NCBI GenBank assembly: GCA_016188985.1 | Contig: JACPGM010000053.1 | Location: 4,290-68,289, forward strand | DNA length: 64,000 nucleotides | Direction of reading: 5' to 3' | From: Lentisphaerota bacterium | Lineage (GTDB): Bacteria > Verrucomicrobiota > Kiritimatiellia > JAAZAB01 | Part shown: in pieces, positions 6,209 through 56,924 of the stretch | How the letters are laid out: each line of letters opens with the position of its first letter | Position numbering within the stretch: the first letter of the stretch is position 1 | Program-made: the position numbers and the translations under genes | The notes under the pieces: generated by a model | The model's database searches: none | What the model was told of the DNA's origin: nothing | Seen by the model: the letters and a program-made list of their open reading frames with translations, nothing else

Positions 6209-6260
6209 GTAGGCCCGCATAGCATGCGGGCAATCGCGCCACATTGTGGCGCGCTACAGT
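6209..6260. terminator. pair of adjacent perfect hairpins between convergent genes (REP-like / bidirectional terminator candidate)
   Basis: gtaggcccgcatagcatgcgggc and gcgccacattgtggcgc palindromes, lying between the 3' ends of the 4718..6052(+) and 6292..7206(-) genes. Confidence 0.3.
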
Positions 6261-6291
6261 TGTCACCACCCATTGACTATAAGGGGCTACG

Positions 6292-17267: not shown

Positions 17268-18406
17268 GGGCTCGGGTAAATCCGCGGGTTTTGCCGCCGG
17301 CATTCGTCAATAACCGCTATCTGCCGGCGAACCTGCTCCGGGGTGATGGCTAGGGGCGCGCCGCGCGTGAGCGTCCGGTAAAGCATCGAATAAAACGCGG
17401 CCGTCAGGTTACTGACGGGCGCGGCAGGAGTATAGCCGGTGGCCTTTGATTTTGCGCCCGCCTTCGCTGCTGGAGCGGCGGGCTTGCCCGCCATAGCTCC
17501 CTGAGCGACGGCGGGCCAGAAACCGGTATGCCAGACAAGCGCCTCGTGCGGATAGGCCGGAGTGCCATCGGGATTAAAGAGCGGCTCTTTGGTTAGTTTG
17601 TGTCGGGGAGCCTCGCTGCGTTTGTAATATTTCCATTCCATATTTGCCTGGGTAGCCTTCAGGCCGCCGCGTGTGCCGTAGATATTGTAATTAAAGCACG
17701 GGTAAGCGCAGCAACAGGAAACTTCCAGGTCAATAGTGGGGTGGCCTGCTCCGCTCAGGATTACCTTGACATGGTCTTCGGCATTGCCAAACGAGTTGTC
17801 GGTATGGTCCATGAAGCAGGCGACTTTGGGCTGACCCTCGCCGAACAGTTGCAGGGCCTGGTCCAGCGGATGCGGGCCGGTATTGGCCAGGCTGCCGCCA
17901 TTGCGGCTCTGCAGGGTCTGCCAGTCCCAGCGCCGGCTGAACCCGTTGAAGGCGATTGAAATCTGAACGATACGGCCCAGTACGCCTGACCGAATTACTT
18001 GTTGCAGTTGAACGAAGTAAGGGGCAAACCGCGACTGCTGGAAAATGGCCAACACCTTTTTGGATTTCCTGGCGGTGACAATTAACCGGTCAACTTCCTT
18101 GACGGTCGCGGCCAGCGGTTTTTCGCAAAGGACGTTATATCCGGCTTTCAGAAACGCCAGGCTGATTGGCGCGTGCAATTGGCTGTAGGTGGCGTTGACA
18201 ACGAGGTCGAGGTCGCGCCGCTTGAAAAGCTGATGATAATCGCGGTACACGTCGCAATGGTATTCCTGGGCGGCTCGTCGCTGGCGGTCTTCCAGGGGAT
18301 CCACGGCGGCCGTGATTTGGAAGCGCGGATCGGTTATTAGGTAGGCGCCGTGAATGTCGCGGCCGCTGCGGCCTTGCCCGATAATTGCCACCCGGATTTT
18401 TTTCAT
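17261..18406 (-). CDS. Gfo/Idh/MocA-family oxidoreductase
   Basis: N-terminal Rossmann motif MKKIRVAIIGQGRSGRDIHG and EKPLA catalytic region. Confidence 0.8.
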   Translation of the reverse strand: MKKIRVAIIGQGRSGRDIHGAYLITDPRFQITAAVDPLEDRQRRAAQEYHCDVYRDYHQLFKRRDLDLVVNATYSQLHAPISLAFLKAGYNVLCEKPLAATVKEVDRLIVTARKSKKVLAIFQQSRFAPYFVQLQQVIRSGVLGRIVQISIAFNGFSRRWDWQTLQSRNGGSLANTGPHPLDQALQLFGEGQPKVACFMDHTDNSFGNAEDHVKVILSGAGHPTIDLEVSCCCAYPCFNYNIYGTRGGLKATQANMEWKYYKRSEAPRHKLTKEPLFNPDGTPAYPHEALVWHTGFWPAVAQGAMAGKPAAPAAKAGAKSKATGYTPAAPVSNLTAAFYSMLYRTLTRGAPLAITPEQVRRQIAVIDECRRQNPRIYPSPC

Positions 18407-18857
18407 TTGCGCTGATGTCCCCCAACCTGCGTTATTAGCTCTGGATCATTTGCGTCAGGCGCTGAGTAATGAAGCATGAAGCGCCGCCGGCTGCAAGTGG
18501 AAAAAACCGCTGCGGGGGGGTAATTGGCTACGGCTGTGTCGCTCTACCACATGAACGCCGCGTGGCCTGTCCGCAATGCTACGCATAGCGTTGCAGACGA
18601 GCTGCCCCGGCGAGCATGACGCAGCCTTGGACAATCCCGATCCCCGCCGGTCTCCCCCCTTGCCATTTAGCCGCCGACAATCTATATTAAGTTTGGGCCT
18701 AAACGCTTTTTGCCAGGCCCTCCTGAGGCCGGCGCTGAATAGGGCCTTTGTTATCCTCGGTCTGGCCGGTGGATTGAGTACCAAATTGGCACGCAAACTG
18801 CTTTATGTAATACAGGATAGCGATTTTGGCTTGCCTACGTAAGGGAGAGGAGCGATT

Positions 18858-19493
18858 ATGAGTCCGATGCAAAGCATAAAAACGGGAAAGTTGAGCGCGG
18901 CAGCGTTCTCCCTCGTGGAAGTGATGGTAGCCACGGCGATATTCGGCCTGGTGACGGCCGGCACCTTCGGCGTCTATATCATGTGCCAGAAGCTGTGGCG
19001 CGCCACGACGCTGAGCACGGATACGTCGCGGCTGGCCAACCTGGCAATCGAACGCATGATCTACGGACTGGGCACCAATAGCGGCCTGCGCTCCGCCGCC
19101 ACCATTTCAATTGACACCAATGTGCACACATATATGACTTATTCAAATTATTGGGATTCGCCGAATGGCTCACCGCCGCCGGCCAACCACTGGTCTCTTA
19201 ATTTATCTCCGACCTGGACTGAGCGCGATGGCAGTTGGCGGATAATTTGTTCTAATGCTTTCGATGGGGTGACCTGGATTGATTATGTAAAGAAACAACG
19301 AAGTATCGTAATGTGGCCAACTATCTGGCAGCCAGACAGCCGGCAGTATATCGCCAATTGGGTTTTGGACGCGGAGGTGTCCACCAACTGGCAAGGGAGC
19401 GACATTGCTGTGATGGTGGTAGTGTGGAAAAAGGATGGAAACTTTGTAGTCAGCAACGAGGCCAGCGCCTTAATCAAAATGCGGAACAAATGA
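18858..19493 (+). CDS. prepilin-type N-terminal cleavage/methylation domain protein (pseudopilin-like)
   Basis: N-terminus …AAAFSLVEVMVATAIFGLVTAG… matches the type IV pilin class III signal (G/A-F-S/T-L-x-E + hydrophobic helix). Confidence 0.6.
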   Translation: MSPMQSIKTGKLSAAAFSLVEVMVATAIFGLVTAGTFGVYIMCQKLWRATTLSTDTSRLANLAIERMIYGLGTNSGLRSAATISIDTNVHTYMTYSNYWDSPNGSPPPANHWSLNLSPTWTERDGSWRIICSNAFDGVTWIDYVKKQRSIVMWPTIWQPDSRQYIANWVLDAEVSTNWQGSDIAVMVVVWKKDGNFVVSNEASALIKMRNK

Positions 19494-19518
19494 AAGCATG
19501 GTTAGCAGAGGGTGGTTT

Positions 19519-19953
19519 ATGAAAGCAACTGATCCGGAGAAAAGAATTGGGCGGGTGACTTGCGGCCCGTCCGGGTTAACCCTGGTTGAGGTGGTGATCG
19601 CCATCGGGATCCTGTTGATCTCCACAGGGGCTCTTCTTTGGGCCTTTGTCAGCGCCAAGCACTCGAGCACCGTCGCGCAAAATCGAGTGTTGGCCATGGA
19701 AAATGCCCGTAACGAACTGGAACTGTTGCGGATTCAACCTTATTCGAGTGTTAGCAATTTCGGGCCCGTAGCTATAACCAATGCGATCTTCACGGGCATA
19801 AGCGGCAAGAGGCAATGGACTGTCACGGACTTTACCAATAGCAGCGGTGATAGCATCTATAAGGAAGTGATTGTGACCATCTCCTGGCTCAATCCAGGAA
19901 GCGCAGAGTCAAGTTCACTGAGTAACAGCACGGTCTTTTTTAACACGAATTGA
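19519..19953 (+). CDS. prepilin-type N-terminal cleavage/methylation domain protein (pseudopilin-like)
   Basis: …GLTLVEVVIAIGILLISTGALL… class III signal-peptide-like N-terminus. Start taken at ATG 19519, preceded by a gagggtgg RBS. Confidence 0.55.
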   Translation: MKATDPEKRIGRVTCGPSGLTLVEVVIAIGILLISTGALLWAFVSAKHSSTVAQNRVLAMENARNELELLRIQPYSSVSNFGPVAITNAIFTGISGKRQWTVTDFTNSSGDSIYKEVIVTISWLNPGSAESSSLSNSTVFFNTN

Positions 19954-19973
19954 CCGGGGTAGGGTGAAGCATC

Positions 19974-21110
19974 ATGAAAACCGGGGAATCAGGCGTTGTA
20001 TTGGAGGCCGTCGTCATTTTTGGCGGTTTGGCCTGTATTCTGGCCGCCGGCATCTACGTGGCCGGCAGTTCCACCGTGGTCAGCTCGGCCCGGACCATCC
20101 GATTTGAAAAAGCTTTTCTGATTGCCGAAGCTGGCGCTGAACGGGCCAAGGCCGATCTGAGCACTAACGCTGATAATATCAACACTATCTTAACCGGCGC
20201 CGATGGCCTTACCAACACGTCCGACGACGGCATTTTAAGTTTTGGCGCCGCAGTGCCCTTTGGCGGCGGAGCCTTTTCCACACGGGTCTGGGACAACAAC
20301 GACAGCGATCCCAGCCTGTTCGTGGATACGGATTGGACGGTTATTATTCGCTCCACCGGTGCCTGTGAAAACGTTCAGCGGGTTTTGGAACTGGCCGTCA
20401 CGGTGTCTAACCCCCCAGCGCCGCCGGCCGATAGTGACGGGGCTTTGGCTATTTATGGGAGTAATACTACCGTGGATGTCGGCGGGAATTCGTCCATTAA
20501 TGGCAATGATTGGGGTGTGCCGGATGATTTTGATTGCACGGGGGCTGCCTGTGACGGCACGCTGACGACCAATCCGGCCGGGCCGGGCGTGTTTTCATCC
20601 ACCAACACCACGCCGACCATCGGCGGCTCGGCCGTCGTGGTGGGTGATCCGCCCGTAACCAATAATGCGACGGGCGACTATGATGCGCAGTATTGGCAAG
20701 CCCAGGTTGACTACTGGACGCCCTTGGCCTCCCTTTCAATCAGCGGCAGCGTTCCCAATGATGCTTACCTCGGGACGCGCGATAACCCGCAAGTTACGCT
20801 GGCTACAGGCGATGTCAATATTGATGGTAATGTGTCCGGGGCTGGTGTTCTTATTGTCCAGCCCGGCGTTGATATCACCATTGCCGGCACGTTTCATTAC
20901 GAAGGGCTGGTGATTCTCCTGGGCAATGTAACTTGCACGGCCCTGGGCACGGCCGACATATTTGGCGCCGTGACCGTCGTGGGTGGAGACAACAGTGTTT
21001 CTCTGAATGGGTTTCCGTCAATCAAATATAGCACCGAGGCGCTGGCCAATCTGGTTAACCTGCCCTTACCCGGCCCGCTCGCGGTGCAATACTGGCGCGA
21101 AATCAAATAA
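19974..21110 (+). CDS. PilX-N-terminal-domain-like pilus-associated protein, tandem paralog 1
   Basis: N-terminal hydrophobic segment (VVLEAVVIFGGLACILAAGIYVAGSS) resembling the PilX_N domain. Paralog of 21450..22595, with long identical blocks (STNADNINTILTGADGLTNT, FHYEGLVILLG, …QYWREIK end). RBS ggtgaag upstream. Confidence 0.5.
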   Translation: MKTGESGVVLEAVVIFGGLACILAAGIYVAGSSTVVSSARTIRFEKAFLIAEAGAERAKADLSTNADNINTILTGADGLTNTSDDGILSFGAAVPFGGGAFSTRVWDNNDSDPSLFVDTDWTVIIRSTGACENVQRVLELAVTVSNPPAPPADSDGALAIYGSNTTVDVGGNSSINGNDWGVPDDFDCTGAACDGTLTTNPAGPGVFSSTNTTPTIGGSAVVVGDPPVTNNATGDYDAQYWQAQVDYWTPLASLSISGSVPNDAYLGTRDNPQVTLATGDVNIDGNVSGAGVLIVQPGVDITIAGTFHYEGLVILLGNVTCTALGTADIFGAVTVVGGDNSVSLNGFPSIKYSTEALANLVNLPLPGPLAVQYWREIK

Positions 21111-27973: not shown

Positions 27974-29251
27974 ATGGGGAACAACGCCCATTTTGAGCCG
28001 CCGCGCGGCATGCGGGATTTTTACCCCGAAGCTGTTGCCGCGCGCAACGCGCTGTTTGATGCCTGGACCCAATCGTCCCGCCTTTTCGGTTTCAGCCAGT
28101 ATGACGCCTGCGTAGTCGAATCGCTGGAGCTGCTTAAACGCAAGCGCGGCGACGAAATTGTCGAGCAAATCTACGCCTTCAAAGACAAGAGCAACCGGGA
28201 CCTGGCGCTGCGTCCCGAGATGACGCCCACCCTGGCCCGCCTGATTGCCGCACGGCAGGGCCAACTGGCCTTTCCCTTGAAATGGTTTGCCATTGCCCAA
28301 TGTTTCCGCTACGAGCGCATGAGCCGCGGGCGCAAGCGGGAACATTATCAATGGAATCTGGATGTGGTCGGCGAAACGGCCTTGGCTGCCGAGGTGGAAG
28401 TGCTGGCCTGCGCCGCGCACGCCCTGCGCGAGCTCGGCTTAGGCAGCGGCGATTACAAAATCCATATCAATAGTCGGGCTTTGCTGGCCGACCTGTTGAC
28501 GCATTCCGGCGTGGCCCCGGCCTTTCATCCCGCCACTTTTCTGGCCTTGGATAAACGCGGCAAACAGGAAGATGCCGATACCCTCCGGGCCCTCAAAGCA
28601 GCCGCTCTGGATGACAATGCCATCGCCGCCGTGTTCCGGATCATGGGCTTGCAATCGCTGGAGGAGGTCCGCCAATTGTTCGGTGGCGAGCAGCCCGCGC
28701 TCACCGCGCTGCAGACGCTTTTCCAGCTTTTGGCCGAGTATGGCCTGGGTGACATAGCCTGGTTTGATATTGGCATAGTGCGCGGACTGGACTACTACAC
28801 CGGCATAGTCTTCGAAGCGTTTGATGCCGAGCGGCAATTCCGGGCTATTTTTGGCGGCGGCCGGTATGACAATCTGCTCTCCGATCTCGGCGGCGCGCCC
28901 ATGACCGCCGTTGGGCTGGGATTTGGCGACGTGGTGATCGCCGAGCTGCTGGCCGAGAAGGGACGCCTGGTGGCGCAACAGACAAAGCTGGATTATGCCA
29001 TTGGCTATATGGATGATTCTCAGCGCTCCGCCGCGCTGCGCCTGGCTCAGGCTATACGCCGAACCGGACAGAGCGTGGATGTGGCTTTGCACGCGGAAAA
29101 ACCCAAGCAGTTCTTCGCGCGGGCGGGCAAGGGCGCCTTTCAGAAAGCGATCTATGTGGGCCCGGACGACGTAGCCCGCGGCACCGTCCGAATCAAAAAT
29201 CTTGATGAGCGCACGGAGGAGGAAAGGTCTTTGACCGAACTGCTGGGATGA
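27974..29251 (+). CDS. hisS: histidine--tRNA ligase
   Basis: 425 aa; class II aaRS motifs; N-terminal …PRGMRDFYPE…; HisRS motifs (…FRYERMSRGRKREHYQWNLDVVG…, …GGGRYDNLL…). Confidence 0.9.
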   Translation: MGNNAHFEPPRGMRDFYPEAVAARNALFDAWTQSSRLFGFSQYDACVVESLELLKRKRGDEIVEQIYAFKDKSNRDLALRPEMTPTLARLIAARQGQLAFPLKWFAIAQCFRYERMSRGRKREHYQWNLDVVGETALAAEVEVLACAAHALRELGLGSGDYKIHINSRALLADLLTHSGVAPAFHPATFLALDKRGKQEDADTLRALKAAALDDNAIAAVFRIMGLQSLEEVRQLFGGEQPALTALQTLFQLLAEYGLGDIAWFDIGIVRGLDYYTGIVFEAFDAERQFRAIFGGGRYDNLLSDLGGAPMTAVGLGFGDVVIAELLAEKGRLVAQQTKLDYAIGYMDDSQRSAALRLAQAIRRTGQSVDVALHAEKPKQFFARAGKGAFQKAIYVGPDDVARGTVRIKNLDERTEEERSLTELLG

Positions 29252-29387
29252 AATTGGGGGAACAAAGGACGGAAGGGACAATCAGGACAGCAATGACTTC
29301 AAGGATGGCAAGAGATCAGACTTCTGCTGGTCGCCGTCTTTGGTGTCCTTGTTGTCCCTTGAGTCCTTTCCCCACCCGGAGCAAGCC

Positions 29388-29948
29388 ATGAACGCGGGTT
29401 TCATCCCGAAACACGGCGGTTACAAAAAGTTGCTCTCCTACCAGAAGTCCGAGATTGTCTACGATGCCACGGTCTATTTCTGCGATCGTTTCATTGATAA
29501 GCGCAGTCGCACCCATGATCAGATGGTGCAGGCAGCGCGCTCCGGCAAGCAGAACATCATCGAAGGCAGTATGGCCTCCGCGACCTCCAAGGAGACCGAA
29601 ATCACGCTGACCAATGTGGCGCGCGCCAGCCTGGAGGAATTGCTGGGCGATTACCGCGATTTCCTGCGCGGGCGCGGCGTGCAGGAATGGCCGAAAGACC
29701 ACGTCTATGCGCGCCGATTGCGCGCGCTCAACAAGATACCGGATGCTACTTATGCCACCTTTAAAAAAGGCATCGAGAACCCCGACCCGGTAATTTCCGC
29801 CAATGTGATCATCGGCCTGATCCGTGTGGCCAGCTACCTGCTGGATCGGCAGATCCGGCATTTGGAGCGCGCCTTCGTCAAAGAAGGCGGCCTGCGCGAG
29901 CGCATGACCCGCGCCCGTCTCGAAGAACGAAGAAAGTCCGGATCATAA
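29388..29948 (+). CDS. four-helix-bundle protein (TIGR02436-like) with C-terminal extension
   Basis: …THDQMVQAARSGKQNIIEGS…ARASLEELLGDYRDFL… matches the conserved core of the four-helix-bundle family. Flanked by ~35-bp direct repeats (see findings). Confidence 0.45.
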   Translation: MNAGFIPKHGGYKKLLSYQKSEIVYDATVYFCDRFIDKRSRTHDQMVQAARSGKQNIIEGSMASATSKETEITLTNVARASLEELLGDYRDFLRGRGVQEWPKDHVYARRLRALNKIPDATYATFKKGIENPDPVISANVIIGLIRVASYLLDRQIRHLERAFVKEGGLRERMTRARLEERRKSGS

Positions 29949-30155
29949 GCCGCTTTAGATGCCTCAAAGGTCGGCAAATACTGCCAAGGCTCTCATGATT
30001 GCGGGGCTGTCTTTGGTGTCTTTGTTGTCCCTTTGGTCTTTTGCCGCTCAGGGTAATCGGATGGGAGTGTTAAATGGAACAATCCGGTTCGGTCTCAGGC
30101 TGACCAGGTCCCGGCACAGGTATAGATAACGCATGAAAATCTTACAAATTATTGT

Positions 30156-30190
30156 TGACTTACTTATTGATATATGTTTAACTTTGGGCC
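30156..30190 (+). promoter_or_regulatory. candidate sigma70-like promoter upstream of vapB-like gene
   Basis: ttgact (−35) – 17 bp – ttaact/tatatg (−10-like) in an AT-rich stretch immediately upstream of the 30191 start. Confidence 0.2.
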
Positions 30191-30484
30191 ATGAAAAGAA
30201 CCGGACCTAACGATTCGGTGCAGTTTTCCGTCAAAGGCCAGGTGGTCATTCCCCGCCGGCTGCGCCGGGAGTACCATATCGAGGAGGGCACGCGCGCCGT
30301 TGTCCAGGCGACTTCCGAGGGTATTCTGATCAAACCGGTGACCAGGGGTCGCATTCAGCGGTTCCGCGGCATCCTCAAGCGGAAACCGGGCGGGAAACCG
30401 TTTGCCCAGGAGTGGGCCGATCATAAGGCCGAAGAAAAAGCATTGGAGGAGGCCAAGTATGCCCGCCTCGCCGGTTCTCGATAG
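30191..30484 (+). CDS. AbrB/MazE/SpoVT-family antitoxin (VapB-like)
   Basis: 97 aa; swapped-hairpin motif SVKGQVVIPRRLRREYHIEEGTRAVV. Overlaps the downstream PIN gene. Confidence 0.65.
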   Translation: MKRTGPNDSVQFSVKGQVVIPRRLRREYHIEEGTRAVVQATSEGILIKPVTRGRIQRFRGILKRKPGGKPFAQEWADHKAEEKALEEAKYARLAGSR

Positions 30485-30863
30485 TTTTGCCCTGCTGAGT
30501 TTTCTCCGCGATGAACCTGGGGCGGAGATGGTGGCAACGCTCCTGGAAAAGGCAGAGGAGCGCAGGCACCCCCTTCAGATGACCGAGGTCAATTACGCCG
30601 AGGTCCAATATATCGTTCGCCGCAAGGATGGGGAGGCTGCCTGGCGCATTGTCGCGGACGAACTGGCGACCATGCCCATCGAATTTCGGCCGGCCGACCG
30701 TCCGCTGGCCGATCAGGCCGCCGATTTCAAGACGCGTTTCCAGCTCAGCCTGGCCGCCGCCTTTGCCGCCGCCCTGGCGAAGCTCCGCAAGGCCGTACTT
30801 GTTACCGGCGATCCCGATTTTAAACAGGTTGAGGGTGAAATCGGGATCGGCTGGCTGAAATGA
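30459..30863 (+). CDS. PIN-domain toxin (VapC-like)
   Basis: Start at MPASPVLDSFALLSFL (acidic D near N-terminus); …VTGDPDFKQVEGE… C-terminal PIN acidic residue. Pairs with the upstream antitoxin. Confidence 0.6.
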   Translation: MPASPVLDSFALLSFLRDEPGAEMVATLLEKAEERRHPLQMTEVNYAEVQYIVRRKDGEAAWRIVADELATMPIEFRPADRPLADQAADFKTRFQLSLAAAFAAALAKLRKAVLVTGDPDFKQVEGEIGIGWLK

Positions 30864-31008
30864 CCGCCATGCATTTATACGTCGGTCATGGATAATCGCA
30901 TTGCAATTATACGATAATGATGCAGATTGTCATTGTGAGGAAGCGTGTATTGGCTGAAGTGTTTTTCCCAGCCAGTGTTTACCGTGAGGATGCCGCAGAG
31001 AATTAGCC

Positions 31009-32304
31009 GTGAAAGAATGTGAAACCATAGAATTCAAGAAGAGTCTGTCAGAACTCAAGGAGGGCTTGGTCTCCATTGTGGCCATCCTGAACAAGCATGG
31101 CTCCGGTGAACTGTGGTTTGGCGTCCGCAACGACGGTGTCAGCGTTGGCCTGGATGCCACAACAAAGACCCTTCGTGATGTTTCGCAAGCGATTAGTGCG
31201 CACATTGAACCGAGGATTTTCCCGCACGTCACACTGGAATCCTGCGCCAGGGAGCTGGAGAATCTTATCCTTTCCAGGAATAGCGAGCGACTTCGCTGGG
31301 ACAACAAAGTGTGTGCTGTTTCTATCGGTGACCTGGATAAAGCCGGAATCAGGCGGTTTATCGCGCGTGCCGGACTCGTATGGGATACCCCGACAAATGC
31401 GCTGGAGAAACTCGGACTTCTTCATGCCGGAAAGCTGGTGAATGCGGCCCCGCTGTTCTTTGCGCGAAAGGCTCCGCTGCAACTGCGTTGCGCCGTTTTT
31501 CTGACGACCGAGAGTTCAACAATTATTGACCGGCATGATTTTGACGGCAACATCCTCGAACTGATAGAAGAGGCTCAACGCTACATTCTCAAAAACATCC
31601 ATATCGGCATGCGTGTCAAGGGGCTTTACCGCGAAGACGTGCCGGAAATCTCGGTTGATGCCCTGCGTGAGGCCATTATCAACGCCTTCTGCCATCGTGA
31701 TTACCGCGATCCGGATTATGTGCACGTTGCGATTTTCAAAGACCGCGTCGAAATCCGAAATCCTGGCAGGTTGTTCGGATCACTGACCTTGGACGATTTG
31801 CGCAAAGGATATGTGTCGCAACGGCGCAATCCATTGATCGCCGATCTGTTCCGCCGCATCGAGATGGTGGAAGCCTGGGGTCGCGGCATGCCGTTGATCA
31901 TCAAGAATGCTCCCGACGTCGTGTTTCGCGAAATCGGCAATCTTTTCATCGTTTCCTTCAACCGGCCATCTTATGCGGATGAATCTGGCAGGGGTGATGC
32001 GTCAAGTTCGGGAAAGGAAGTTCCGGTAAGAGGGTTCCTGAAAGAAAGTTCCGGCAAGAAGGTATCTGAAGAAGGTTCGGGAAAGAAGGTTCGGGAAAGA
32101 AGGTTCGGGAAAGATTCTGGAAAAACCGGACATCAAATACTCGATTTCCTTTCACAGCAACCCGAGATGACGGTTCCTGAACTTGCCGGGCGGCTGGGAC
32201 TAACGACTCGCGCGATTGAGAAGCAAATCGCCAAATTGCGGGATGCGAAATTACTGCTTCGCACAGGCGGACGTAAAATAGGGCGTTGGGAGGTGCAGAA
32301 ATGA
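31009..32304 (+). CDS. AlbA_2 (Schlafen-core-like) + HATPase_c_4 + C-terminal winged-HTH protein
   Basis: N-terminus ECETIEFKKSLSELKEGLVSIVAILNKHGSGELWFGVRNDGVSVGL is the AlbA_2 signature. Central …DYVHVAIFKDRVEIRNPGRL… is HATPase_c_4. C-terminus …LDFLSQQPEMTVPELAGRLGLTTRAIEKQIAKLRDAKLL… is HTH. Low-complexity linker encoded by a 14-nt tandem repeat. Confidence 0.7.
   Translation: MKECETIEFKKSLSELKEGLVSIVAILNKHGSGELWFGVRNDGVSVGLDATTKTLRDVSQAISAHIEPRIFPHVTLESCARELENLILSRNSERLRWDNKVCAVSIGDLDKAGIRRFIARAGLVWDTPTNALEKLGLLHAGKLVNAAPLFFARKAPLQLRCAVFLTTESSTIIDRHDFDGNILELIEEAQRYILKNIHIGMRVKGLYREDVPEISVDALREAIINAFCHRDYRDPDYVHVAIFKDRVEIRNPGRLFGSLTLDDLRKGYVSQRRNPLIADLFRRIEMVEAWGRGMPLIIKNAPDVVFREIGNLFIVSFNRPSYADESGRGDASSSGKEVPVRGFLKESSGKKVSEEGSGKKVRERRFGKDSGKTGHQILDFLSQQPEMTVPELAGRLGLTTRAIEKQIAKLRDAKLLLRTGGRKIGRWEVQK
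32020..32115 (+). repeat. 14-nt tandem repeat (ggttcgggaaagaa x3 plus degenerate units) inside the AlbA_2 gene linker
   Basis: gaaggttcgggaaagaaggttcgggaaagaaggttcgggaaagat. Unit length is not a multiple of 3, so successive units are read in different frames (GSGKK / VRERR / FGKDS). Confidence 0.7.
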
Positions 32305-32699
32305 CTTCCGCCGTGAAATGTGGGACAACGCGACGACGGACGGCCCGGGGGTGTCAGTTCCACGCGCTTGCGGACATCGAAAAATAAGCAGGAAACCGCT
32401 CCTGGCATTTTGACGGAGTGGATGTTCTGCCGGTGAGCGAGTTTCTGCGCCAGTTGCATCAGGGAAAGGTTTTTTGAAAAACACTAACCGAATATGTTTT
32501 GCCGCCGGAAATAAATATCCCCTTATTAAGGGCCACTGGGACAACAAAAAGCTAACTTCGCGTGAATGCACCCGGCTCCAGAGATACGAAGATTATTGGT
32601 CCAGATTCCGGCTGCGCTATATGTAAAAGTACCACAATCGCAATTCGCACTGGCAGACAGCCAGCCGTCAGAAAAACCAGTTAAAAATATGATATACAT

Positions 32700-34703
32700 G
32701 TGATGAAAACGACTTCAACCCCTCGTCTGACGCGCTCTTGGTTCGTCCGAACCATAGCTGAATTTGAGAGTGCATCTGACGATCAAGTACTTGCCGAACT
32801 GGTCAGGGGCAGTTTGTTTCCCATTCTGCAATCTCAGAGGGATGCTTGGCTCGCAGAACTGCCATTTTTGCGGAGGGCCCTGACCGGCCATACGGGAATG
32901 GTGTACCTTGAGTTCGCAATCCCGAGGATGGGGCATCGCGTTGATGCGGTCGTGTTGATAAACGGGATTGTTTTGGCAATAGAATTCAAGATCGATGCGA
33001 GGGAATACTTTCTGAGCGATGTTGACCAGGTATACGACTACGCGATCGATCTCAAATACTTCCACGAGGCCAGCCATAACCTATCGGTAGTGCCAATTCT
33101 CGTGGCATCACGGGCAAAGACCAGGTTCTTCCTGCTTGCACCACACGCGAGAGTATCTGGACTTTGTCAACCAATCTGCACGAATGCTGAGGATTTGGCA
33201 GCGACCATCAACTGTGTGATAAGCAAGTTGCCTGCGGAATGCGTTGACCCGGCCACATGGGAGGCTTCTCGTTATTGCCCAACCCCCACAATCGTTGAGG
33301 CCGCCCGCGCTCTCTACGCCGGTCATGGCGTCGCCGACATCTCGCGCAACGATGCAGGAGCCATCAATCTGAGCGAGACATCAGAACAGTTAGTGCGAAT
33401 CATTGAAACCTCGAAGTCCTTGGGCCAAAAGGCCATTTGTTTCGTCACCGGAGTGCCGGGTGCCGGGAAGACACTTGTGGGGCTTAACATTGCGACGAAG
33501 TATAACGACCCCAAGAGTGAACTTCATAGTGTGTTTCTTTCGGGGAACGGCCCTCTTGTAGCAATTCTCCGCGAAGCTCTGGCGCGAGACACCATTCAAC
33601 GCGAACGTGTTAAAGGAAACCGACTCAGGAAAGGCGACGCCATGGCACGGGTGAAGGCGTTTATCCAAAACGTACACCATTTTCGGGATGAATGTCTCCT
33701 TGATCAGTCTCGTCCGCCTGTCGATCATGTCGCGTTGTTTGATGAGGCGCAACGCGCCTGGGATCAGGAGCAGACGGCCTTGTTTATGCGCCGCAAGAAG
33801 GGGGTCACAGGCTTCAACGTATCGGAGCCAGAGTTCCTGATTTCGTGCATGGATCGGCGCAACGATTGGGCGGTGATTGTTTGCCTTGTCGGCGGAGGGC
33901 AAGAGATCAACACTGGGGAGGCCGGCATTGGGGAATGGATTGAGGCCGTGCAACGCGCATTTGGCGAGTGGCACCTGTACATCTCTCCTGCGTTAACGGA
34001 TAGCGAATATGGCGCGGGAAAACTTCTCGAAGCAATCAGGAACCGCGCTAATGTGCACTACCTGCAGGAACTTCATCTTGGCGTCTCAATGCGCTCATTT
34101 CGAGCCGAAAAGGTTTCGGCCTTCGTCAAGATGGTTTTGGATTTCGAAATTACCCGAGCGCGGGATCTATTGCAGGAGTTTGAGGGTCGCTATCCCATCG
34201 TGTTGACCCGCAATTTGGACCTCGCAAGACAATGGTTGCGCGATCAAGCCAGTGGAAACGAGCGGTTTGGGATTGTTGTATCATCGCAGGCAGAGCGATT
34301 GAAACCATATGCCATTGATGTTCGAACGCCTGTGAATCCTGTGAAGTGGTTTCTCGATGGAAAAGACGATGTGCGGTCATCGTACTACCTTGAAGATGTT
34401 GCGACCGAATTTCATGTACAAGGGCTTGAGCTCGACTGGGTGTGCGTATCGTGGGACGGCGATTTTCGCTACAACGAACACGGCTGGCAGCACCTCTCAT
34501 TTCGCGGCACCAAGTGGCAGCGCATCAACAAGGCTTCCAGAAAAAACTACCTCAAGAATGCCTATCGTGTCCTACTCACACGGGCGCGTCAGGGAATGGT
34601 GATATTCATTCCTGAAGGAAGTTCAACTGATCCAACAAGGCATCCGAGTTACTATGACTCGACTTTTGCCTACTTGCGGTCAATTGGGCTGCGCGAGTTG
34701 TAG
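32700..34703 (+). CDS. DUF2075 (Schlafen C-terminal helicase-like) P-loop ATPase with N-terminal PD-(D/E)xK nuclease-like domain
   Basis: N-terminal …GHRVDAVVLINGIVLAIEFKID… (D…E-x-K). Walker A AICFVTGVPGAGKTLVGLN; Walker B-like …HVALFDEAQRAWD…; 667 aa typical of DUF2075. Confidence 0.7.
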   Translation: MMKTTSTPRLTRSWFVRTIAEFESASDDQVLAELVRGSLFPILQSQRDAWLAELPFLRRALTGHTGMVYLEFAIPRMGHRVDAVVLINGIVLAIEFKIDAREYFLSDVDQVYDYAIDLKYFHEASHNLSVVPILVASRAKTRFFLLAPHARVSGLCQPICTNAEDLAATINCVISKLPAECVDPATWEASRYCPTPTIVEAARALYAGHGVADISRNDAGAINLSETSEQLVRIIETSKSLGQKAICFVTGVPGAGKTLVGLNIATKYNDPKSELHSVFLSGNGPLVAILREALARDTIQRERVKGNRLRKGDAMARVKAFIQNVHHFRDECLLDQSRPPVDHVALFDEAQRAWDQEQTALFMRRKKGVTGFNVSEPEFLISCMDRRNDWAVIVCLVGGGQEINTGEAGIGEWIEAVQRAFGEWHLYISPALTDSEYGAGKLLEAIRNRANVHYLQELHLGVSMRSFRAEKVSAFVKMVLDFEITRARDLLQEFEGRYPIVLTRNLDLARQWLRDQASGNERFGIVVSSQAERLKPYAIDVRTPVNPVKWFLDGKDDVRSSYYLEDVATEFHVQGLELDWVCVSWDGDFRYNEHGWQHLSFRGTKWQRINKASRKNYLKNAYRVLLTRARQGMVIFIPEGSSTDPTRHPSYYDSTFAYLRSIGLREL

Positions 34704-34861
34704 ACCGCTAATGCTTGCATCCATCTGACGTAACCGCTTCCCGACGCGGAGACATTCTTGCCGTCGGCGAAGGACAGGTTTTCCACATCGAGAGTTCCTT
34801 CGATTCCCTTAGCCGTATCGGATCCATCATGCAGATACAGGAGACGCAGAAAGAGGGGGAT

Positions 34862-35080
34862 ATGCCTATGGAGTTTTCCCCGGAAGGCGACAAGATTGTC
34901 ATCTTTCTGTCCAAGAGCGATTTTGCGGAATCATGCCCGGCAGGTTATTTCGATGTAAAACAAAACGGAACCCCATGCGGTGAAGCAGGGCACGCACCAG
35001 CCTTTCGGGTTTTGTGTCTTTACACCGAATGCGGCTCATGTTCCAACTGCGTTGCTGTGGCGTTAAAATATCAATCATAG
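34862..35080 (+). CDS. small Cys-rich hypothetical protein (72 aa)
   Basis: ATG preceded by strong RBS aaagaggggga; C-terminal …YTECGSCSNC… Could be non-coding. Confidence 0.25.
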   Translation: MPMEFSPEGDKIVIFLSKSDFAESCPAGYFDVKQNGTPCGEAGHAPAFRVLCLYTECGSCSNCVAVALKYQS

Positions 35081-35463
35081 CGTCATTGCCTCTATTTGCT
35101 CTCCACTGTTGAGTAGACGATTTATCAAGGGAGGCTTGCGATCATCATTAAAGCCGGGACGTCAAGAGGCTCGAAGCGGACAAGTCTATTTCTGTTCTGT
35201 GCCTGCGCCGCTTGCATGTTCACAGCGGTTTTGAATGTATCAGGGCATATCCGGAAAAGCCAGTTGAAATCCACATAAATCCTCCTACGCCCAACGTCAG
35301 GCTATGAAGGACGGGACGGAGGGCGGAATGACGTACGCCGGACGCCGGCCGGAGTGTCCTCATCCGTCGCTCCAAGAGCTATGGATGGCAGGCAGGGAAC
35401 TTTTCATTGTTTTAATATGTAGATAGTTGTTGACAAGTCCCTACATTATGAAACACTGCCGTC

Positions 35464-36069
35464 ATGAGCACTAAGGCAAAATCTATTCTGGAACTCGCTC
35501 GGTATAAAGGGTTCATCAGGGCGCGCGACCTTATTCAGCACGCGATTCCAACTGTGTATCTTGGACGACTGACCCACTTGGGTCTGCTGGAGCGCGTTAG
35601 CCGCGGGCTGTATCGCCTGCCGGATTCTGAAGTGACGGAGCACTATTCACTGGCAGAGGTGGCCGCCAAGGTGCCGGGCGGGGTGGTTTGTCTGCTTTCG
35701 GCGCTCAACTTCCATATTATTGGCACACAACAGCCGCACGAGGTATGGCTGGCAATCCCGGAGAAGGCGCGCCAACCACGACTGAAAAGTCCGCGCCTGC
35801 GCCTATTCCGCTTCTCCAAGTCGGCCTTCACGGAGGGCGTAGAGACTCACGTTATCCAAGGGATACCGGTGAAGGTGTATAGCCCGGCCAAGACTGTAGC
35901 CGACTGCTTCAAGTATCGAAATAAAATCGGACTGGATGTAGCCATGGAAGCGCTCCGGGAAAGTCTGCGGTCCCGTAAGTGCACGCGGGAGGACATTCAT
36001 CGTTATGCCCGGATATGCCGGGTGTGGAATGTCATGCGGCCCTACCTGGAAATGGAGGCTTCGTCGTGA
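35464..36069 (+). CDS. AbiEi-family antitoxin / transcriptional regulator (type IV TA), apparently orphan
   Basis: N-terminal wHTH …ILELARYKGFIRARDLIQHAIPTVYLGRLTHLGLLERVSRGLYRL… and C-terminal AbiEi_4/DUF4095-like region. No AbiEii nucleotidyltransferase gene follows. Confidence 0.65.
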   Translation: MSTKAKSILELARYKGFIRARDLIQHAIPTVYLGRLTHLGLLERVSRGLYRLPDSEVTEHYSLAEVAAKVPGGVVCLLSALNFHIIGTQQPHEVWLAIPEKARQPRLKSPRLRLFRFSKSAFTEGVETHVIQGIPVKVYSPAKTVADCFKYRNKIGLDVAMEALRESLRSRKCTREDIHRYARICRVWNVMRPYLEMEASS

Positions 36070-36245
36070 CTCGCGCACAACCCGTGAATGATTCAACGAT
36101 AGAGCCCAGGAGGCGCAAATAACGAACAAGCCTATTTCTGGGCCTGCGCGCCCGGAATGGTGTCCCACCTTCGTCTAAAGGGCTTCCACCGTCGCCCCTT
36201 CGACTTCGCTCAGGGCTTCGCAGGGCAGGCTGGTGTCTCCCTTCC

Positions 36246-38066
36246 TTATTCTCCGGGCTGTCGTCTGGTGTCTGTCGTCAGTCGTCGGTCTTCGGGCTTG
36301 GGCGGCAGGGCGAGCTTCAGGTGCAATTCGCGGAGTTGTTTTTCGGTGACGCCGGCGGGCGCGCCCATCATCAGGTCCTGTGCCTTCTGATTCATGGGGA
36401 AGGCAATGACTTCGCGAATGTTAGCTTCATTGGCCAACAGCATCAGAATGCGGTCAATGCCGGGGGCAATGCCGCCGTGCGGCGGCGCGCCCAGCCGGAA
36501 GGCGTTGATCAATCCACCAAAGCGCTCATCCACGGCTTGTTGATCATAGCCGGCCAGGGCGAAAGCCCGATACATGATTTCGGGATCGTGGTTCCGGATC
36601 GCGCCGCTGGAAAGCTCCACGCCGTTGCAGATAATGTCATATTGATAGGCCCGGATCGCGAGCGGGTCTTGTTCCTCCAGGGCTTGCATGCCGCCCTGCG
36701 GCATCGAAAATGGATTGTGCGAGAAAATGATCTGGCCGGTTTCCTCGTCCCGTTCAAACATCGGGAAATCAGTGACCCAGCAAAACCGGAAAATCCCCTC
36801 ATCAATCAGCTTCAGGTCCTGAGCCAGTTTCACGCGCAGGTCGGCGGTGATGCGGTTGACCTCGCGCGGCCGGTCGCAGACGAAGAACACCACGTCGCTG
36901 GCGTGAACTTCGCACTGCATGGCAATCGCTTCAAGCTGCGCGGGAGTCAGGAATTTGACAATTGGTCCCTTAACCCCCGCATCGGTCCAGACCAGGTACG
37001 CCAGGCCTTTAGCGCCCAGCCCCTTGGCATAATCCGTGAGCTTGTCAAAGAAACTCCGCGGCTGGGCGGCAATTTTCCCGACGGGGATCGCCCGCACAAT
37101 TCCGCCCTGCTCGATGACCGAGCGGAAAGCGTTGAAGCCGGATTCCTTGAAAAGGGCGGTCAGGTCGCGCATTTCGATCGGAATCCGCAAATCCGGCTTA
37201 TCGGTCCCGTATTTCAACATGGCTTCCGCATAAGGGATGCGCGGGAAAGGCGGAGCGTTAAATGGTTTCCGGGAGAATGTCCGGAATACGCTGGCCAGCA
37301 CATCCTCGACGACGACGAAGACATCGTCCTGGGTGGCGAACGCCATTTCGAGATCCAACTGGTAAAATTCGCCGGGGGAGCGGTCGGCGCGGGCATCCTC
37401 GTCGCGGAAGCAGGGCGCGATCTGGAAATAGCGGTCAAACCCGGCGACCATCAGCAACTGCTTGAACTGCTGGGGGGCCTGGGGCAAGGCATAAAACTTT
37501 CCGGGATGCACGCGGCTGGGCACGAGGTAGTCGCGGGCGCCCTCCGGGGAACTGCTGGTCAGGATCGGGGTCTGGAATTCCTGGAACCCCAGGGAGAGCA
37601 TACGCTCGCGGATAAAAGCGATTACACGGGCGCGTTGAACAATGTTGCCGTGCAGCCGCTCCCGGCGCAGGTCCAGGTAGCGGTAGCGCAGGCGCAGATC
37701 TTCCGGGCCGTCTTCCATCGCGTCCACCGGAAAGGGCAAGCTGCCGCAGGGTGAAAGCACCTGGATGGCTTCCGCCACCAGCTCGATTTCGCCCGTTGCC
37801 AGATTGGGGTTAACCGTTTCCGGCGAGCGCGCCACCACGGCGCCGGTGACGGTAATGACGCTTTCCAGGTGCAGGCGCTTGCTCAGGTTGAAAAATTCGC
37901 GGTCGGGCTGAATTACCACCTGGGTCAATCCGTAATGATCGCGCAGGTCAATAAACAGCAGTTGACCATGGTCGCGTTTGCGATAAACCCAGCCGGCCAG
38001 GCGCGCGCTCCTGGAAATATCGGTTGCTCGTAATTCACCGCAGGTGCGCGTACGATAAGGATGCAT
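36246..38066 (-). CDS. aspS: aspartate--tRNA ligase
   Basis: Start [14 protein letters not shown]…; anticodon-binding OB fold, class II motifs (…[23 protein letters not shown]…, …[14 protein letters not shown]…). Confidence 0.95.
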
Positions 38067-38130
38067 GGGGAATTTTCGATTTATGATTGGTGATTTTTGG
38101 TGACTACTCAGGTCATTCAACTGTTCCAGC

Positions 38131-38247
38131 GGCCGCACAGGCTGTGCGGCCCTACCATATTTTCATGCCATAGGCAGACCCGCCTATGGCGGGACATCTT
38201 CCCATTGGTAGGGCGGGACAGTCTTGTCCCGCCGGCTTTGCGATAGA
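38131..38247. repeat. REP-like repeat family C, inverted copy of 12069-12215
   Basis: ggccgcacaggctgtgcggccctacc…ccataggcagacccgcctatggcgggac…ggtagggcgggacagtcttgtcccgcc is the reverse complement of the 12-kb copy. Confidence 0.6.
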
Positions 38248-54844: not shown

Positions 54845-55405
54845 TCAGCCTGATCTTGGTTCTGCCGCGAGCCATTGTCCGGCGAGTTCAAGGATCTGCA
54901 ATTTTGTCTGAAGATTTTGACGTCGAACGGGAATCATGTCCACAACATCGAGCCCACAAGTGGTCATCACTTTTTCCAGACTAACACAGCATGCCGGCGC
55001 GCCCCCGCCGCCGCCGCCGGCTACACACACGCCAATCGCGGGTTTCCCCTTTATAGACACACGGCCGGCCGCGTGTGTGCATATTCGGCGCAAGCGATCA
55101 GCGAATGCGCGCAGACTCTCGCTCAGGTCTGAATAATAAACCGGCGTAGCAAAAACTATAGCGTCGGCCTGTCTTATCTTTTCGACCAGGCCGCTCAGGT
55201 CGTCATCAATGACACAACGTCCCTCTTTCCGGCATAAACCCCAGCCATTATCGTCACATTGACGACAACGCTCGACCTTAAGCGTGGGTAGAAATACCTG
55301 TTCTGCCGAGGCCCCGGCCTTCGCCAAACCTTTCCGCACGGCATCAGCAGCCAGGGCCGTCTGACCATTCGGATTTCTGCTCCCGCATATCAATATAGTT
55401 TGCAT
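54845..55405 (-). CDS. flavodoxin-like fold protein (NADPH-dependent FMN reductase / iron-sulfur flavoprotein-like)
   Basis: MQTILICGSRNPNGQTA… N-terminus; flavodoxin-like pattern; C-rich segment …RCRQCDDNGWGLC…; ggagg RBS 6 nt upstream of 55405. Confidence 0.55.
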   Translation of the reverse strand: MQTILICGSRNPNGQTALAADAVRKGLAKAGASAEQVFLPTLKVERCRQCDDNGWGLCRKEGRCVIDDDLSGLVEKIRQADAIVFATPVYYSDLSESLRAFADRLRRICTHAAGRVSIKGKPAIGVCVAGGGGGGAPACCVSLEKVMTTCGLDVVDMIPVRRQNLQTKLQILELAGQWLAAEPRSG

Positions 55406-55837
55406 TCGTGCCTCCAGGTCTGTTCGCATCCCAACGAATAGACGTTTTATTCCTCAGTGCGGCGAATATAGCACGGTAGGATTGGGCGACAAGCCGATGA
55501 TATATATATTATCCTTACGGCCAACTAATGGGGTTTTAATTTATAGCTTTTTATCAAGTGTGCCGCGAGCATACAAGGACGGCCGAGATGGGACAGGCGC
55601 AAATTGAGCGGCATCCAAATCCTGATCATTACACCTGAAATACCTGCGCTGTCGTGATGCGAAAATGTATGTTGACGTTTACAGACACTTCATATTAGGT
55701 ATCCCTATATGCAACAAATAGGGATAGTCAGATATGATTACTTGTGATGATCTGCTGGAGCAGTCTGTCGCCTGGCCGACCGGGAGATAGCCTCCTCTTC
55801 ATGACCCACGCATATCACTCTGCGCTGTTCGTAGCCC

Positions 55838-56027
55838 CTCAGTCTTGTGGGCTTATTGTCATTCCCGACCTGATGCTACTCTGCGAAGTTCCGCCATAGC
55901 GGATCCGCCTTCTGGCGGAAAGCCTCCCTGCTCTGCGAAGCCGCTACGCAGGGCGTAGAAGAGTCGCTACGAAGCACGAGGGGAATGACAGTGTTGATGT
56001 TCACGACCTACCCACAAGACTGAGGCC
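55838..56027. mobile_element. composite MITE: family B element (gtcattccc…gggaatgac) nested inside outer inverted repeats agtcttgtggg…cccacaagact
   Basis: cctcagtcttgtgggcttattgtcattcccgacc…ccgccatagcggatccgccttctggcggaa…gaggggaatgacagtg…cccacaagactgaggcc. The outer motif cccacaagactgaggcc recurs at ~61040-61057. Confidence 0.5.
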
Positions 56028-56115
56028 TTACCGCTGTTCAACGAAAGATATTGACGCAGGCAAAGAGACGGTGGTAATCTAAAAATCAAATGCGGGGAAA
56101 TACGGAGGATATGAC

Positions 56116-56334
56116 ATGACAGCACTATTGGAGCAAGTCTTTAAAAAGGCGTCTGCTCTTCCCGCGGACATTCAGGACATCTTGGCAGCCGAATTTCTCC
56201 AAGAAATCGAATGGGAATCACAGTGGGACGCCACTCTGAAAAAAACGCAGGATGCGTTAGGCAAACTGACGATGGCCGCAATGGCAGAACACAAAAATGG
56301 CAAGACCGAGGAAATGGGATTTGACGAATTGTGA
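56116..56334 (+). CDS. putative antitoxin of a RelE/ParE-type TA pair
   Basis: 72-aa acidic protein, 4-nt overlap (gtga/atga) with the downstream RelE/ParE-like gene. Confidence 0.45.
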   Translation: MTALLEQVFKKASALPADIQDILAAEFLQEIEWESQWDATLKKTQDALGKLTMAAMAEHKNGKTEEMGFDEL

Positions 56335-56600
56335 AGTCTTGTCTTACCAAGGACTTCCGCATCTGTTTTGCTGAACTTCCGGATCGCGTCCAGCGCCTTG
56401 CGCGAGAGAACTACAGGCTATGGAAATGCAATCCCTATCATCCGAGTCTTTCTTTCAAACGGGTCGGCAGGCGATATCCGACATACTCCGTTAGAATCGG
56501 TCTTGGCTGGCGGGCACTTGGTTTCCGAGAGAATGACACACTCGTTTGGTTTTGGATCGGCTCTCATGCCGATTACGAGCGACGGATTCAAAAACTCTGA
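56331..56600 (+). CDS. RelE/ParE-superfamily toxin
   Basis: 89 aa; C-terminal …YSVRIGLGWRALGFRENDTLVWFWIGSHADY… parallels the RelE/ParE beta-sheet motif (YRLRVGDYRVIYRIDDE…VGHRKDVY). Confidence 0.55.
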   Translation: MKSCLTKDFRICFAELPDRVQRLARENYRLWKCNPYHPSLSFKRVGRRYPTYSVRIGLGWRALGFRENDTLVWFWIGSHADYERRIQKL

Positions 56601-56924
56601 GAATCATCGAACAAAGCGGCGGAAGCTATCGCCCCGCAAGGCGGGGCTCAGCCTCAACGCTGACGTCGGTTAACGATGTGCTGATGAAAAAGTTAAGGCA
56701 GTTGTAAAATTCAGGCATGGTTCAAAACCCCGTGGTTTCAGGTTCCGCCGGAGGCGGATCTGCCTCAGGCATGAAACAATTCTCGCATGGAGATGGAGGG
56801 CGGACCTCCGTGTCCGCCGCGGCGATGACGGAGCATCGCCCTCCATGACGCATGCAGTCCGATACCTTGAATTGAACCAAGCTAAAATTCATAACGGAAC
56901 AACCGATAGGCAAGGAGGTGTGAT

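Follow-up and report, generated by a model that had tools for sequence, protein, structure and literature searches.

The window analysed here, a 64-kb stretch of contig JACPGM010000053.1 from a Lentisphaerota bacterium, contains a block of about 7 kb in which toxin-antitoxin (TA) and defence-type genes lie between the convergent genes hisS (stop at 29251) and aspS (stop at 36246), which enclose a gap of 6,994 bp (29252-36245). With a probability of roughly 0.8, this 7-kb block is a lineage-variable accretion site, i.e. a small defence/TA islet, and not one mobile element. The comparisons described below establish the accessory status of the block, its mosaicism, the family assignments of its genes and their partial decay, and the locus documents that the junction between hisS and aspS varies in Kiritimatiellia-like bacteria. 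All six genes named by a first-pass annotation made from the sequence alone, encoding a four-helix-bundle (4HB) protein, VapB, VapC, an AlbA_2 protein, a DUF2075 protein and AbiEi, were recovered in place by Pfam, PADLOC and NCBIfam profiles. PADLOC assignments agreed with the TA/defence content ascribed to the block, and its two ends adjoin hisS and aspS as described. The reported lack of an integrase was borne out as well, with no integrase or transposase domain found among the scanned island open reading frames (ORFs) by Pfam, PADLOC or NCBIfam.

For the synteny comparison, 80 loci around hisS relatives were searched for the genes of the window. The order HU-hisS followed by convergent aspS(-accA)-LysM is kept from Kiritimatiellia to Lentisphaerota, and the hisS-aspS gap measures just 7-216 bp in 14 of the 23 loci showing both genes in this order (e.g. 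7 bp in L019, 30 bp in L044, 119 bp in L006, and 176 bp in L011). The whole block is not conserved across the lineage, in agreement with the accessory nature proposed in the first-pass annotation. Relatives carry cargo of their own at this junction, including a URO-D-like gene (PF01208, 340 aa, native GC) as the sole cargo of the gap in three loci (L003, L007, and L024) and, in further relatives, a peptidase, a transporter, or about 2 kb without clear genes. Defence-type cargo was present between hisS and aspS in only three of the sampled lineage relatives, and cargo common with the window in L001 and L004 only.

These two loci share different parts of the block. L001 carries the 4HB gene (92% amino acid identity), VapB (87%) and VapC (90%) without the AlbA_2 segment; the equivalents of window positions 30937 and 32401 are joined there, with 8 bp between them. 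L004 carries a URO-D gene, an AbiEii/AbiEi pair, VapBC (87% nucleotide identity), and an inverted DUF2075 gene (60% amino acid identity). The differing subsets point to a hotspot filled module by module. When the window was compared with L001/L004 at third codon positions of conserved residues, identity was 0.78-0.94 for 4HB, VapB and VapC, and 0.54-0.74 for ilvD, hisS, aspS, accA and HU. These values suggest that the 4HB, VapB and VapC genes share more recent ancestry with L001 and L004 than the core genes do.

Other arrangements were observed around the junction. In L004 the URO-D-like gene, which is absent from the window, also lies directly after hisS. Downstream of the intact vapBC of L001, positions 4355-4471 hold a second, partial VapC 3' end (79% amino acid identity over 38 residues), which points to sequence having been duplicated or rearranged locally within the hotspot. 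In L036, aspS-accA-LysM is located upstream of HU-hisS on the same strand, i.e. the conserved junction is rearranged.

Base composition is likewise heterogeneous. Positions 29280-36100 have a GC content of 0.535 and the remaining sequence one of 0.579; no other 6.8-kb stretch goes as low (mean 0.573, sd 0.016, z about -2.4), and tetranucleotide distance is maximal at 30001-35000 (z 2.8). The lower GC in the first-pass annotation, together with the sliding-window GC and tetranucleotide check that it suggested, held for the block as an average but not along its whole length, as the dip is carried by AlbA_2, DUF2075 and spacers, i.e. by 30.75-35.5 kb only. The AlbA_2 gene has a third-position GC content (GC3) of 0.57 (z -2.1) and a codon adaptation index (CAI) z of -1.4, and the DUF2075 gene a GC3 of 0.58 (z -2.0) and a CAI z of -2.1. 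The 4HB, VapB and VapC genes are host-like (GC3 0.70-0.73; mean of 43 background genes 0.69), and the composition of AbiEi is only mildly low. The claim of one inserted island was abandoned in view of this mixed composition and of the different gene subsets held by L001 and L004.

Other lower-GC stretches (0.52-0.55) were observed in the window at 55000-57000 and 18000-21000, the former a 2-kb stretch with a GC as low as that of the island. Their gene products are an FMN reductase, a Band 7/SPFH protein, a pseudopilin-like protein, and proteins without a Pfam match; no defence genes lie in them. Since these other lower-GC stretches are without defence genes, GC alone does not single out the island.

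Assembly of the block

According to the proposed mechanism, cargo would collect where two essential genes converge, in a space bounded by their 3' ends and terminators and open to insertion without damage to an operon. At least five modules, comprising 4HB with its hairpins, vapBC, AlbA_2, DUF2075, and AbiEi, would have been gained or reshuffled separately, with the vapBC module bringing its own conserved promoter region. Fragments of a PDC-M33B-type gene and of a Vsr gene, together with a non-coding scar, may be leftovers of earlier occupants. The most likely route of gain would be that imported DNA recombined into the site, joined through short homology within hairpin and terminator sequences. 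These modules, whose putative functions follow from their families, would act independently, if at all. The DUF2075 protein would be the only intact candidate effector, a nuclease-helicase that might act on invading DNA by analogy with Nhi. AbiEi could act only as a repressor or as an antitoxin to an AbiEii encoded elsewhere.

Several observations weigh against the accretion of modules at a hotspot. No mobility gene, tRNA or att-type repeat explaining module entry was found, and the direct repeats of the block are confined to the surroundings of the 4HB gene and, in weak form, of AbiEi. In the alignment of the window with L001, the 4HB and VapBC coding sequences are 89-95% identical and the spacers only 67-74%; given this drop in the spacers, the high coding identity may reflect selection, not recent exchange. 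The closest relatives are just 72-75% identical in hisS, a distance too great for ordering or dating the events. Lastly, PDC-S41, the PADLOC family of the DUF2075 protein, is a computational candidate and not a validated system.

Acquisition of the block in a single event, as one integrative genomic island that later lost its integrase, would fit a contiguous block lying almost all on one strand, forming the lowest-GC stretch of the window and holding no core genes. This history is nevertheless quite improbable, since codon usage and GC3 split the block into host-like 4HB/VapBC and foreign AlbA_2/DUF2075, and since relatives hold partial, rearranged subsets of it. No repeat pair brackets the whole block and no tRNA or integrase remnant accompanies it, the sole tRNA of the window lying at 53294. 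The opposite history, in which the block is ancestral to the clade and the short hisS-aspS gaps of relatives are deletions, is unlikely. It draws on the presence of 4HB and/or VapBC at the same site in L001 and L004, and on a solo GGAC hairpin at the position of the 4HB cassette in L011, as hairpin-hairpin recombination would leave. However, hisS and aspS are adjacent across very divergent Kiritimatiellia and Lentisphaerota (hisS identity 55-74%), and AlbA_2 and DUF2075 are of foreign composition. Moreover, DUF2075 copies 90-95% identical occur in unrelated contexts, and the DUF2075 of L004 is 40% different from that of the window and inverted.

A further alternative concerns two of the modules, the AlbA_2 gene (31009-32304, plus strand) and the DUF2075 gene (32703-34703, plus strand), which had been annotated as a Schlafen-like pair. 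In eukaryotic group-3 Schlafens, the domains of these two genes, PF04326 and PF09848, make up one half of the protein each, and the genes are adjacent, co-oriented, and both of foreign composition. That they form a split Schlafen-like two-gene defence system is still highly improbable, because they stand 395 bp apart with a scar between them, L001 keeps both flanks of the AlbA_2 segment without the segment itself, and PADLOC treats DUF2075 (PDC-S41) as a single-gene candidate. An AlbA_2 partner was found in none of four DUF2075 contexts, and a DUF2075 partner in neither of two AlbA_2 contexts, both of which are type I restriction-modification (R-M) operons. DUF2075 homologs of 74-95% identity are single genes in unrelated neighbourhoods, beside other defence candidates including PDC-S02, Vsr, and an MzaE fragment. 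From these gene contexts, the adjacency of AlbA_2 and DUF2075 is a chance one, not a bacterial 'Schlafen', and the locus serves as a warning that such adjacent genes should not be read as one. In sum, the block is a mosaic defence/TA hotspot of an ordinary kind, partly decayed and without an integrase, and illustrates how patches of this type break down, leaving orphan antitoxins, crippled toxins, and gene fragments behind.

Gene modules and remnants

The DUF2075 protein (666 aa; PDC-S41 E 1.9e-277, PF09848 E 2e-82) matches the PADLOC PDC-S41 profile over its full length (profile positions 2-653 of 657). Residues 244-638 form a helicase domain of the Schlafen-group-3 type (PF09848). In the first 240 residues, 36 sequences all share E70, D81 and E94-x-K96, and an AlphaFold model of this N-terminal region (predicted local distance difference test (pLDDT) score 82) was most like McrC, Can2, Cap4, and EndoMS, all of them PD-(D/E)xK nucleases, at E values of 0.01 or worse. 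The protein is predicted to combine an N-terminal PD-(D/E)xK-like nuclease, by this weak structural match, with an SF1-type helicase. The Nhi hidden Markov model (HMM) matched residues 235-272 only (E 7e-5); with the match limited to the P-loop, the protein is not an Nhi ortholog. A literature search found no paper on PDC-S41. Exact-sequence look-ups of the window DUF2075 (GTG start) and AbiEi gave no match, and a look-up with the ATG-start DUF2075 returned only a 2.9-kb contig identical to the window. One homolog has an AIPR/MzaE fragment on its downstream side; the fragment downstream of the window gene showed no match to it, and this candidate was rejected.

The AlbA_2 gene encodes a 431-aa protein with AlbA_2, HATPase_c_4 and winged helix-turn-helix (wHTH) domains (Pfam) and lies within a segment (30938-32400, plus strand) that is an indel relative to L001, as defined by comparison of the window-L001 junction. 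Among homologs with retrievable gene context, the closest two (71% and 67% identity) are located between hsdM and hsdS/hsdR in type I R-M operons, one being followed by a KilA-N protein (PDC-S22) and the other near a CD-NTase-like gene. No hsd genes lie beside the window gene, i.e. the usual R-M context is gone. A degenerate 14-nt (or 27-28-nt) repeat was observed inside the gene at 32006-32128; its product is the low-complexity Gly/Lys/Glu linker that connects the HATPase_c_4 domain to the wHTH domain.

Downstream of AlbA_2, the non-coding scar (32305-32699) showed no homology in any frame by Pfam, BLASTP, or tblastn, and the C-terminal gene remnant that had been suspected in it is not identifiable. 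Part of the scar (32401-32508) has 84% nucleotide identity to positions 4259-4365 of L001, where it is followed by the duplicated VapC 3' end. For positions 32474-32626 (plus strand), two candidates were considered. A C5 cytosine methyltransferase C-terminus, as a partner of Vsr, was rejected, with Pfam, BLASTP against VapC, and plasmid tblastn all empty; a degenerate PIN C-terminus, hinted at by L001, is unproven.

The vapBC module consists of a vapB antitoxin gene of the AbrB/MazE fold (30191-30484, plus strand; PF04014 E 5.5e-6, TIGR01439; 87% and 84% amino acid identity to L001 and L004, respectively) directly upstream of a vapC PIN toxin gene (30462-30863, plus strand; PF01850 E 2.6e-17), the start of which overlaps the end of vapB by 23 nt. 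A promoter-like region of vapBC is common to the window, L001, and L004. In an alignment of 48 VapC sequences (the window, its two orthologs, and 45 more distant relatives), position 99 is Asp in 39 (81%), including L001 and L004, and Ala in the window. VapC retains D7, E47 and D117, leaving the conserved acidic PIN set incomplete (D99A). In PIN domains, the loss of one conserved acidic residue normally abolishes RNase activity. Taken together with this established behaviour, Ala99 suggests that the VapC toxin is probably attenuated or inactive.

Between DUF2075 and aspS, the 121-codon 'Cys-rich ORF' of the first-pass annotation (34715-35080) is probably no gene. Its residues 10-71 match the middle of PDC-M33B, marking a PDC-M33B-type gene fragment (34742-34927, plus strand; PADLOC E 3.1e-10, profile positions 129-190 of 289), and its 3' half is antisense to an N-terminal fragment of a Vsr endonuclease (35078-34899, i.e. 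34899-35078 on the minus strand; PF03852 E 1.5e-12; TIGR00632 E 7e-10, below its cut-off). This fragment covers about 48 of roughly 150 aa, with no continuation in any frame. A partial copy of the aspS terminator follows (35177-35209; direct repeats D11 and D6 match 36123-36150), and then a 59-nt non-coding stretch (35212-35270) with no Rfam match and 88% identity to L004 16822-16880, which in L004 lies upstream of the inverted DUF2075 gene.

The solitary AbiEi antitoxin/regulator gene (35464-36069, plus strand; PADLOC AbiEi E 1e-84, full length) is bracketed by an imperfect repeat of about 28 nt, formed by the 35177-35209 copy and the aspS terminator, whose length is barely above chance. The protein shares 58% identity with an AbiEi encoded on a plasmid, in which the AbiEi and AbiEii genes overlap. 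In searches with the island sequence, phage DNA gave no match, and plasmids matched AbiEi only, weakly. As the first-pass annotation had recognized, AbiEi is an orphan here: a tblastn search of the 64-kb window with two AbiEii proteins returned nothing below E 0.5. Its stop codon lies 53 nt from the aspS terminator, a terminator-like hairpin (36126-36147, minus strand; terminator scan) that marks the right edge of the accessory block and whose core 'AGCCTATTTCTG' is also found in the near-empty site of L011.

The core flanks are hisS on the left (27974-29251, plus strand; 425-aa ORF, 55-75% identity to hisS in 80 loci from PVC-group metagenome-assembled genomes (MAGs)) and aspS on the right (36246-38138, minus strand; 630-aa ORF, 64-85% identity in relatives). 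The window hisS is at most 75% identical to hisS of Kiritimatiellia and Verrucomicrobiota MAGs. Local gene order is ilvD, a nucleoside deoxyribosyltransferase-like gene, HU, and the plus-strand hisS, followed by aspS, accA, and a LysM/YkuD gene on the minus strand.

The 4HB gene and its periodic hairpins

The element of wider interest is the 4HB 'suffix' gene with its 9-nt-periodic hairpins, the rest of the block being one more small hotspot. The gene (29388-29948, plus strand) encodes a 186-aa protein with an S23/IVP/Avd-like fold, matching TIGR04258 (E 8e-22; 76.8 bits, cut-off 40), TIGR02436 (24.5 bits, cut-off 24) and, weakly, PF05635. Foldseek searches with an AlphaFold 2 model (pLDDT 84) gave 2gsc, 2rld, and Avd (8ub7_E) as top folds with probabilities of 0.99-1.0, 8ub7 being a ribonucleoprotein structure of a diversity-generating retroelement (DGR) that contains an Avd chain. 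To our knowledge, PF05635/TIGR02436 proteins are abundant and tied to rRNA intervening sequences and DGRs, with no known function outside these.

At least 8000 homologs of the 4HB protein were found, of which the best 120 are 79-100% identical and come from several phyla; taxa labelled among these 120 are Acidobacteriota, Thermoanaerobaculia, Deltaproteobacteria, Deferrisomatales, and Lentisphaerae. At 80-95% identity, the 4HB protein is better conserved between phyla than hisS is inside the class. The gene is a singleton amid unrelated genes in all contexts examined. One allele (P0180) was found on 22 contigs in the same context in all copies, and therefore shows no trace of current transposition. 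Viral contigs were also scanned with the 4HB gene and yielded no relative. An orientation bias relative to the upstream neighbour (43 co-oriented, 24 against) was weak, came from crude ORF calls, and was left unused.

In the window the gene lies between two periodic hairpins. The upstream hairpin (29263-29374) has arms of (AAGGACnnn)x4-5 and (GTCCTTnnn)x4, forms an inverted repeat (29264-29297/29336-29369, 82% complementary), and ends 14 nt before the ATG. It was matched by covariance model R1 with 65.5 bits (29268-29374, E 1.7e-15), and its predicted RNA fold has an energy of -56.8 kcal/mol (z -5.9). The downstream hairpin (29952-30047) is matched by R1 with 33 bits (E 2.9e-6) and has a degenerate A-arm. 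A 40-nt direct repeat, 85% identical, flanks the 4HB gene at 29333-29372 and in the B-arm at 30006-30045, with an inverted copy at 29263-29297. The GGAC/GTCC hairpin motif occurs nowhere else in the window (0 expected by chance).

The hairpins were surveyed in 80 metagenomic loci carrying 4HB homologs, and the GGAC/GTCC architecture recurs beside 4HB genes in other phyla. Because a strict detector of exact GGAC arrays missed the hairpins of the window, the covariance model and a motif-free lag-9 statistic were used in its place. At the 4HB flanks this statistic averaged 23.6 of 36 matches, compared with about 16 of 36 at other lags and in control windows. The signal is weaker yet present for 4HB homologs of less than 70% identity, with the variant cores ATAGGAC or TGGGAC. 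Stems measure 30-45 bp and consist of 9-nt units with a GGAC/GTCC core, the spacer bases of which co-vary between the arms. An alignment of 15 hairpins comprised 34 base pairs with 82.6% pairing and 15 pairs changed on both sides, and its covariation score was above all 500 shuffles and all slid controls. L104 and L171 carry perfect 35-45-bp stems with locus-specific spacers.

According to the covariance model, which was derived from these hairpins, a hairpin abuts the 4HB gene in 31 of 38 non-redundant loci at an identity of at least 70%, being upstream only in 16, downstream only in 5, and on both sides in 10. The distance from the end of an upstream hairpin to the ATG is 0-39 nt (typically about 14), and with one exception downstream hairpins begin within about 14 nt of the stop codon. 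The same model found three hairpins only in 1.18 Mb of unrelated loci, namely the solo GGAC hairpin at hisS-aspS of L011 and two solo hairpins with different 9-nt motifs. Rfam holds no family for the periodic hairpin, and literature text searches found no description of it. Sense-strand mismatches in the stems gave no evidence of RNA-specific selection, with 65 G-U and 70 A-C and hence no asymmetry; the lack of a G-U excess weighs against a role of the stems at the RNA level.

Solo hairpins were observed in several places. The GGAC-type hairpin of L011 (11274-11380) has no 4HB gene and occupies precisely the junction of hisS and aspS, a state that could have arisen if two hairpins flanking the gene had recombined and removed it; the same junction in L006 has no hairpin. 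In the window, a long solo hairpin (1850-1935) between genes for an OppC-like permease and a HAD hydrolase is 9-nt-periodic with the unit (A/G)CGCGAAAn/TTTCGCGnn, a fold of -34.5 kcal/mol (z -4.7), and a weak R1 match of 22.6 bits. Solo 9-nt-periodic hairpins with a CGCAAAG-type unit were also found at L011 14406-14499 and L004 3663-3761 (z -9.0 and -7.7), the former in the spacer that separates accA from the LysM/YkuD gene and that is only 36 bp long in the window. These CGCAAAG-type examples suggest that periodic hairpins form a broader class of intergenic elements in the genomes concerned. In L090 (4585-4700), the GTCCTT arm of the downstream hairpin is in frame and forms the hydrophobic core (…LSLMSFVSLLSFSFSC…) of a predicted signal peptide of the following ORF, 537 aa long with no Pfam match, after which a further GTCCTT array follows (6231-6263).

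Tentatively, and at somewhat less than even odds, the 4HB gene and its periodic hairpins may form an undescribed small, horizontally spreading cassette with the hairpins as its cis-acting ends. In such a cassette the hairpins might serve as arrays to which an oligomeric 4HB protein binds, as sites of recombination or insertion, or as stems processed in the RNase III manner of rRNA intervening sequences, all three being equally possible. Solo hairpins such as that of L011 would be loss footprints or non-autonomous copies. A cis element travelling with one 4HB subfamily offers a candidate nucleic-acid ligand and candidate element ends, and such a cassette would make the role and spread of the 4HB protein testable.

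Comparison with known systems

Defence islands and variable hotspots between core genes are a general feature of bacterial pangenomes. Like them, the hisS-aspS block holds variable TA and anti-phage cargo, fragments, and orphan components at a fixed junction; it differs in being very small (7 kb), in having no integrase, tRNA, or transposase, and in its position between two convergent aminoacyl-tRNA synthetase genes. Its vapBC resembles type II VapBC modules in having an AbrB-type antitoxin gene overlapping a PIN toxin gene, but VapC has Ala in place of the third conserved Asp. AbiEi is full length as in type IV AbiE systems, whereas its AbiEii partner is absent from the 64 kb. The PrrC anticodon nuclease is the classic accessory gene embedded in a type I R-M operon. 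Homologs of the window AlbA_2 gene occupy the same operon position, while the window gene itself has no hsd genes.

The DUF2075 protein shares with Nhi, Nhi-like and PDC-S41 proteins the arrangement of a putative nuclease followed by a DUF2075 helicase in one polypeptide. The same architecture has been described for Nhi, the nuclease-helicase immunity protein of Staphylococcus (bioRxiv 10.1101/776245), and for 'Nhi-like' (bioRxiv 10.1101/2022.05.11.491447). The window protein differs from Nhi in sequence and shows no full match to the Nhi HMM.

The 4HB protein is of the same fold and family as the proteins of rRNA intervening sequences and as Avd, a DGR accessory protein (PMC10053308). Unlike a DGR, the 4HB locus has no reverse transcriptase domain among the scanned island ORFs and no long repeat of the template/variable (TR/VR) type. 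The closest analogy for the hairpins is the rRNA intervening sequence; in that of Coxiella 23S rRNA, a stem of 28 bp, which RNase III cleaves, surrounds an S23p ORF (PMC4990558). The 4HB gene differs from 23S intervening sequences in lying between hisS and vapB, with no rRNA in the window, and in that one stem encloses the ORF there, whereas complete 9-nt-periodic hairpins usually stand on one or both sides of the 4HB gene. Common to both are a short 4HB ORF bounded by long complementary sequences and a sporadic distribution consistent with horizontal transfer.

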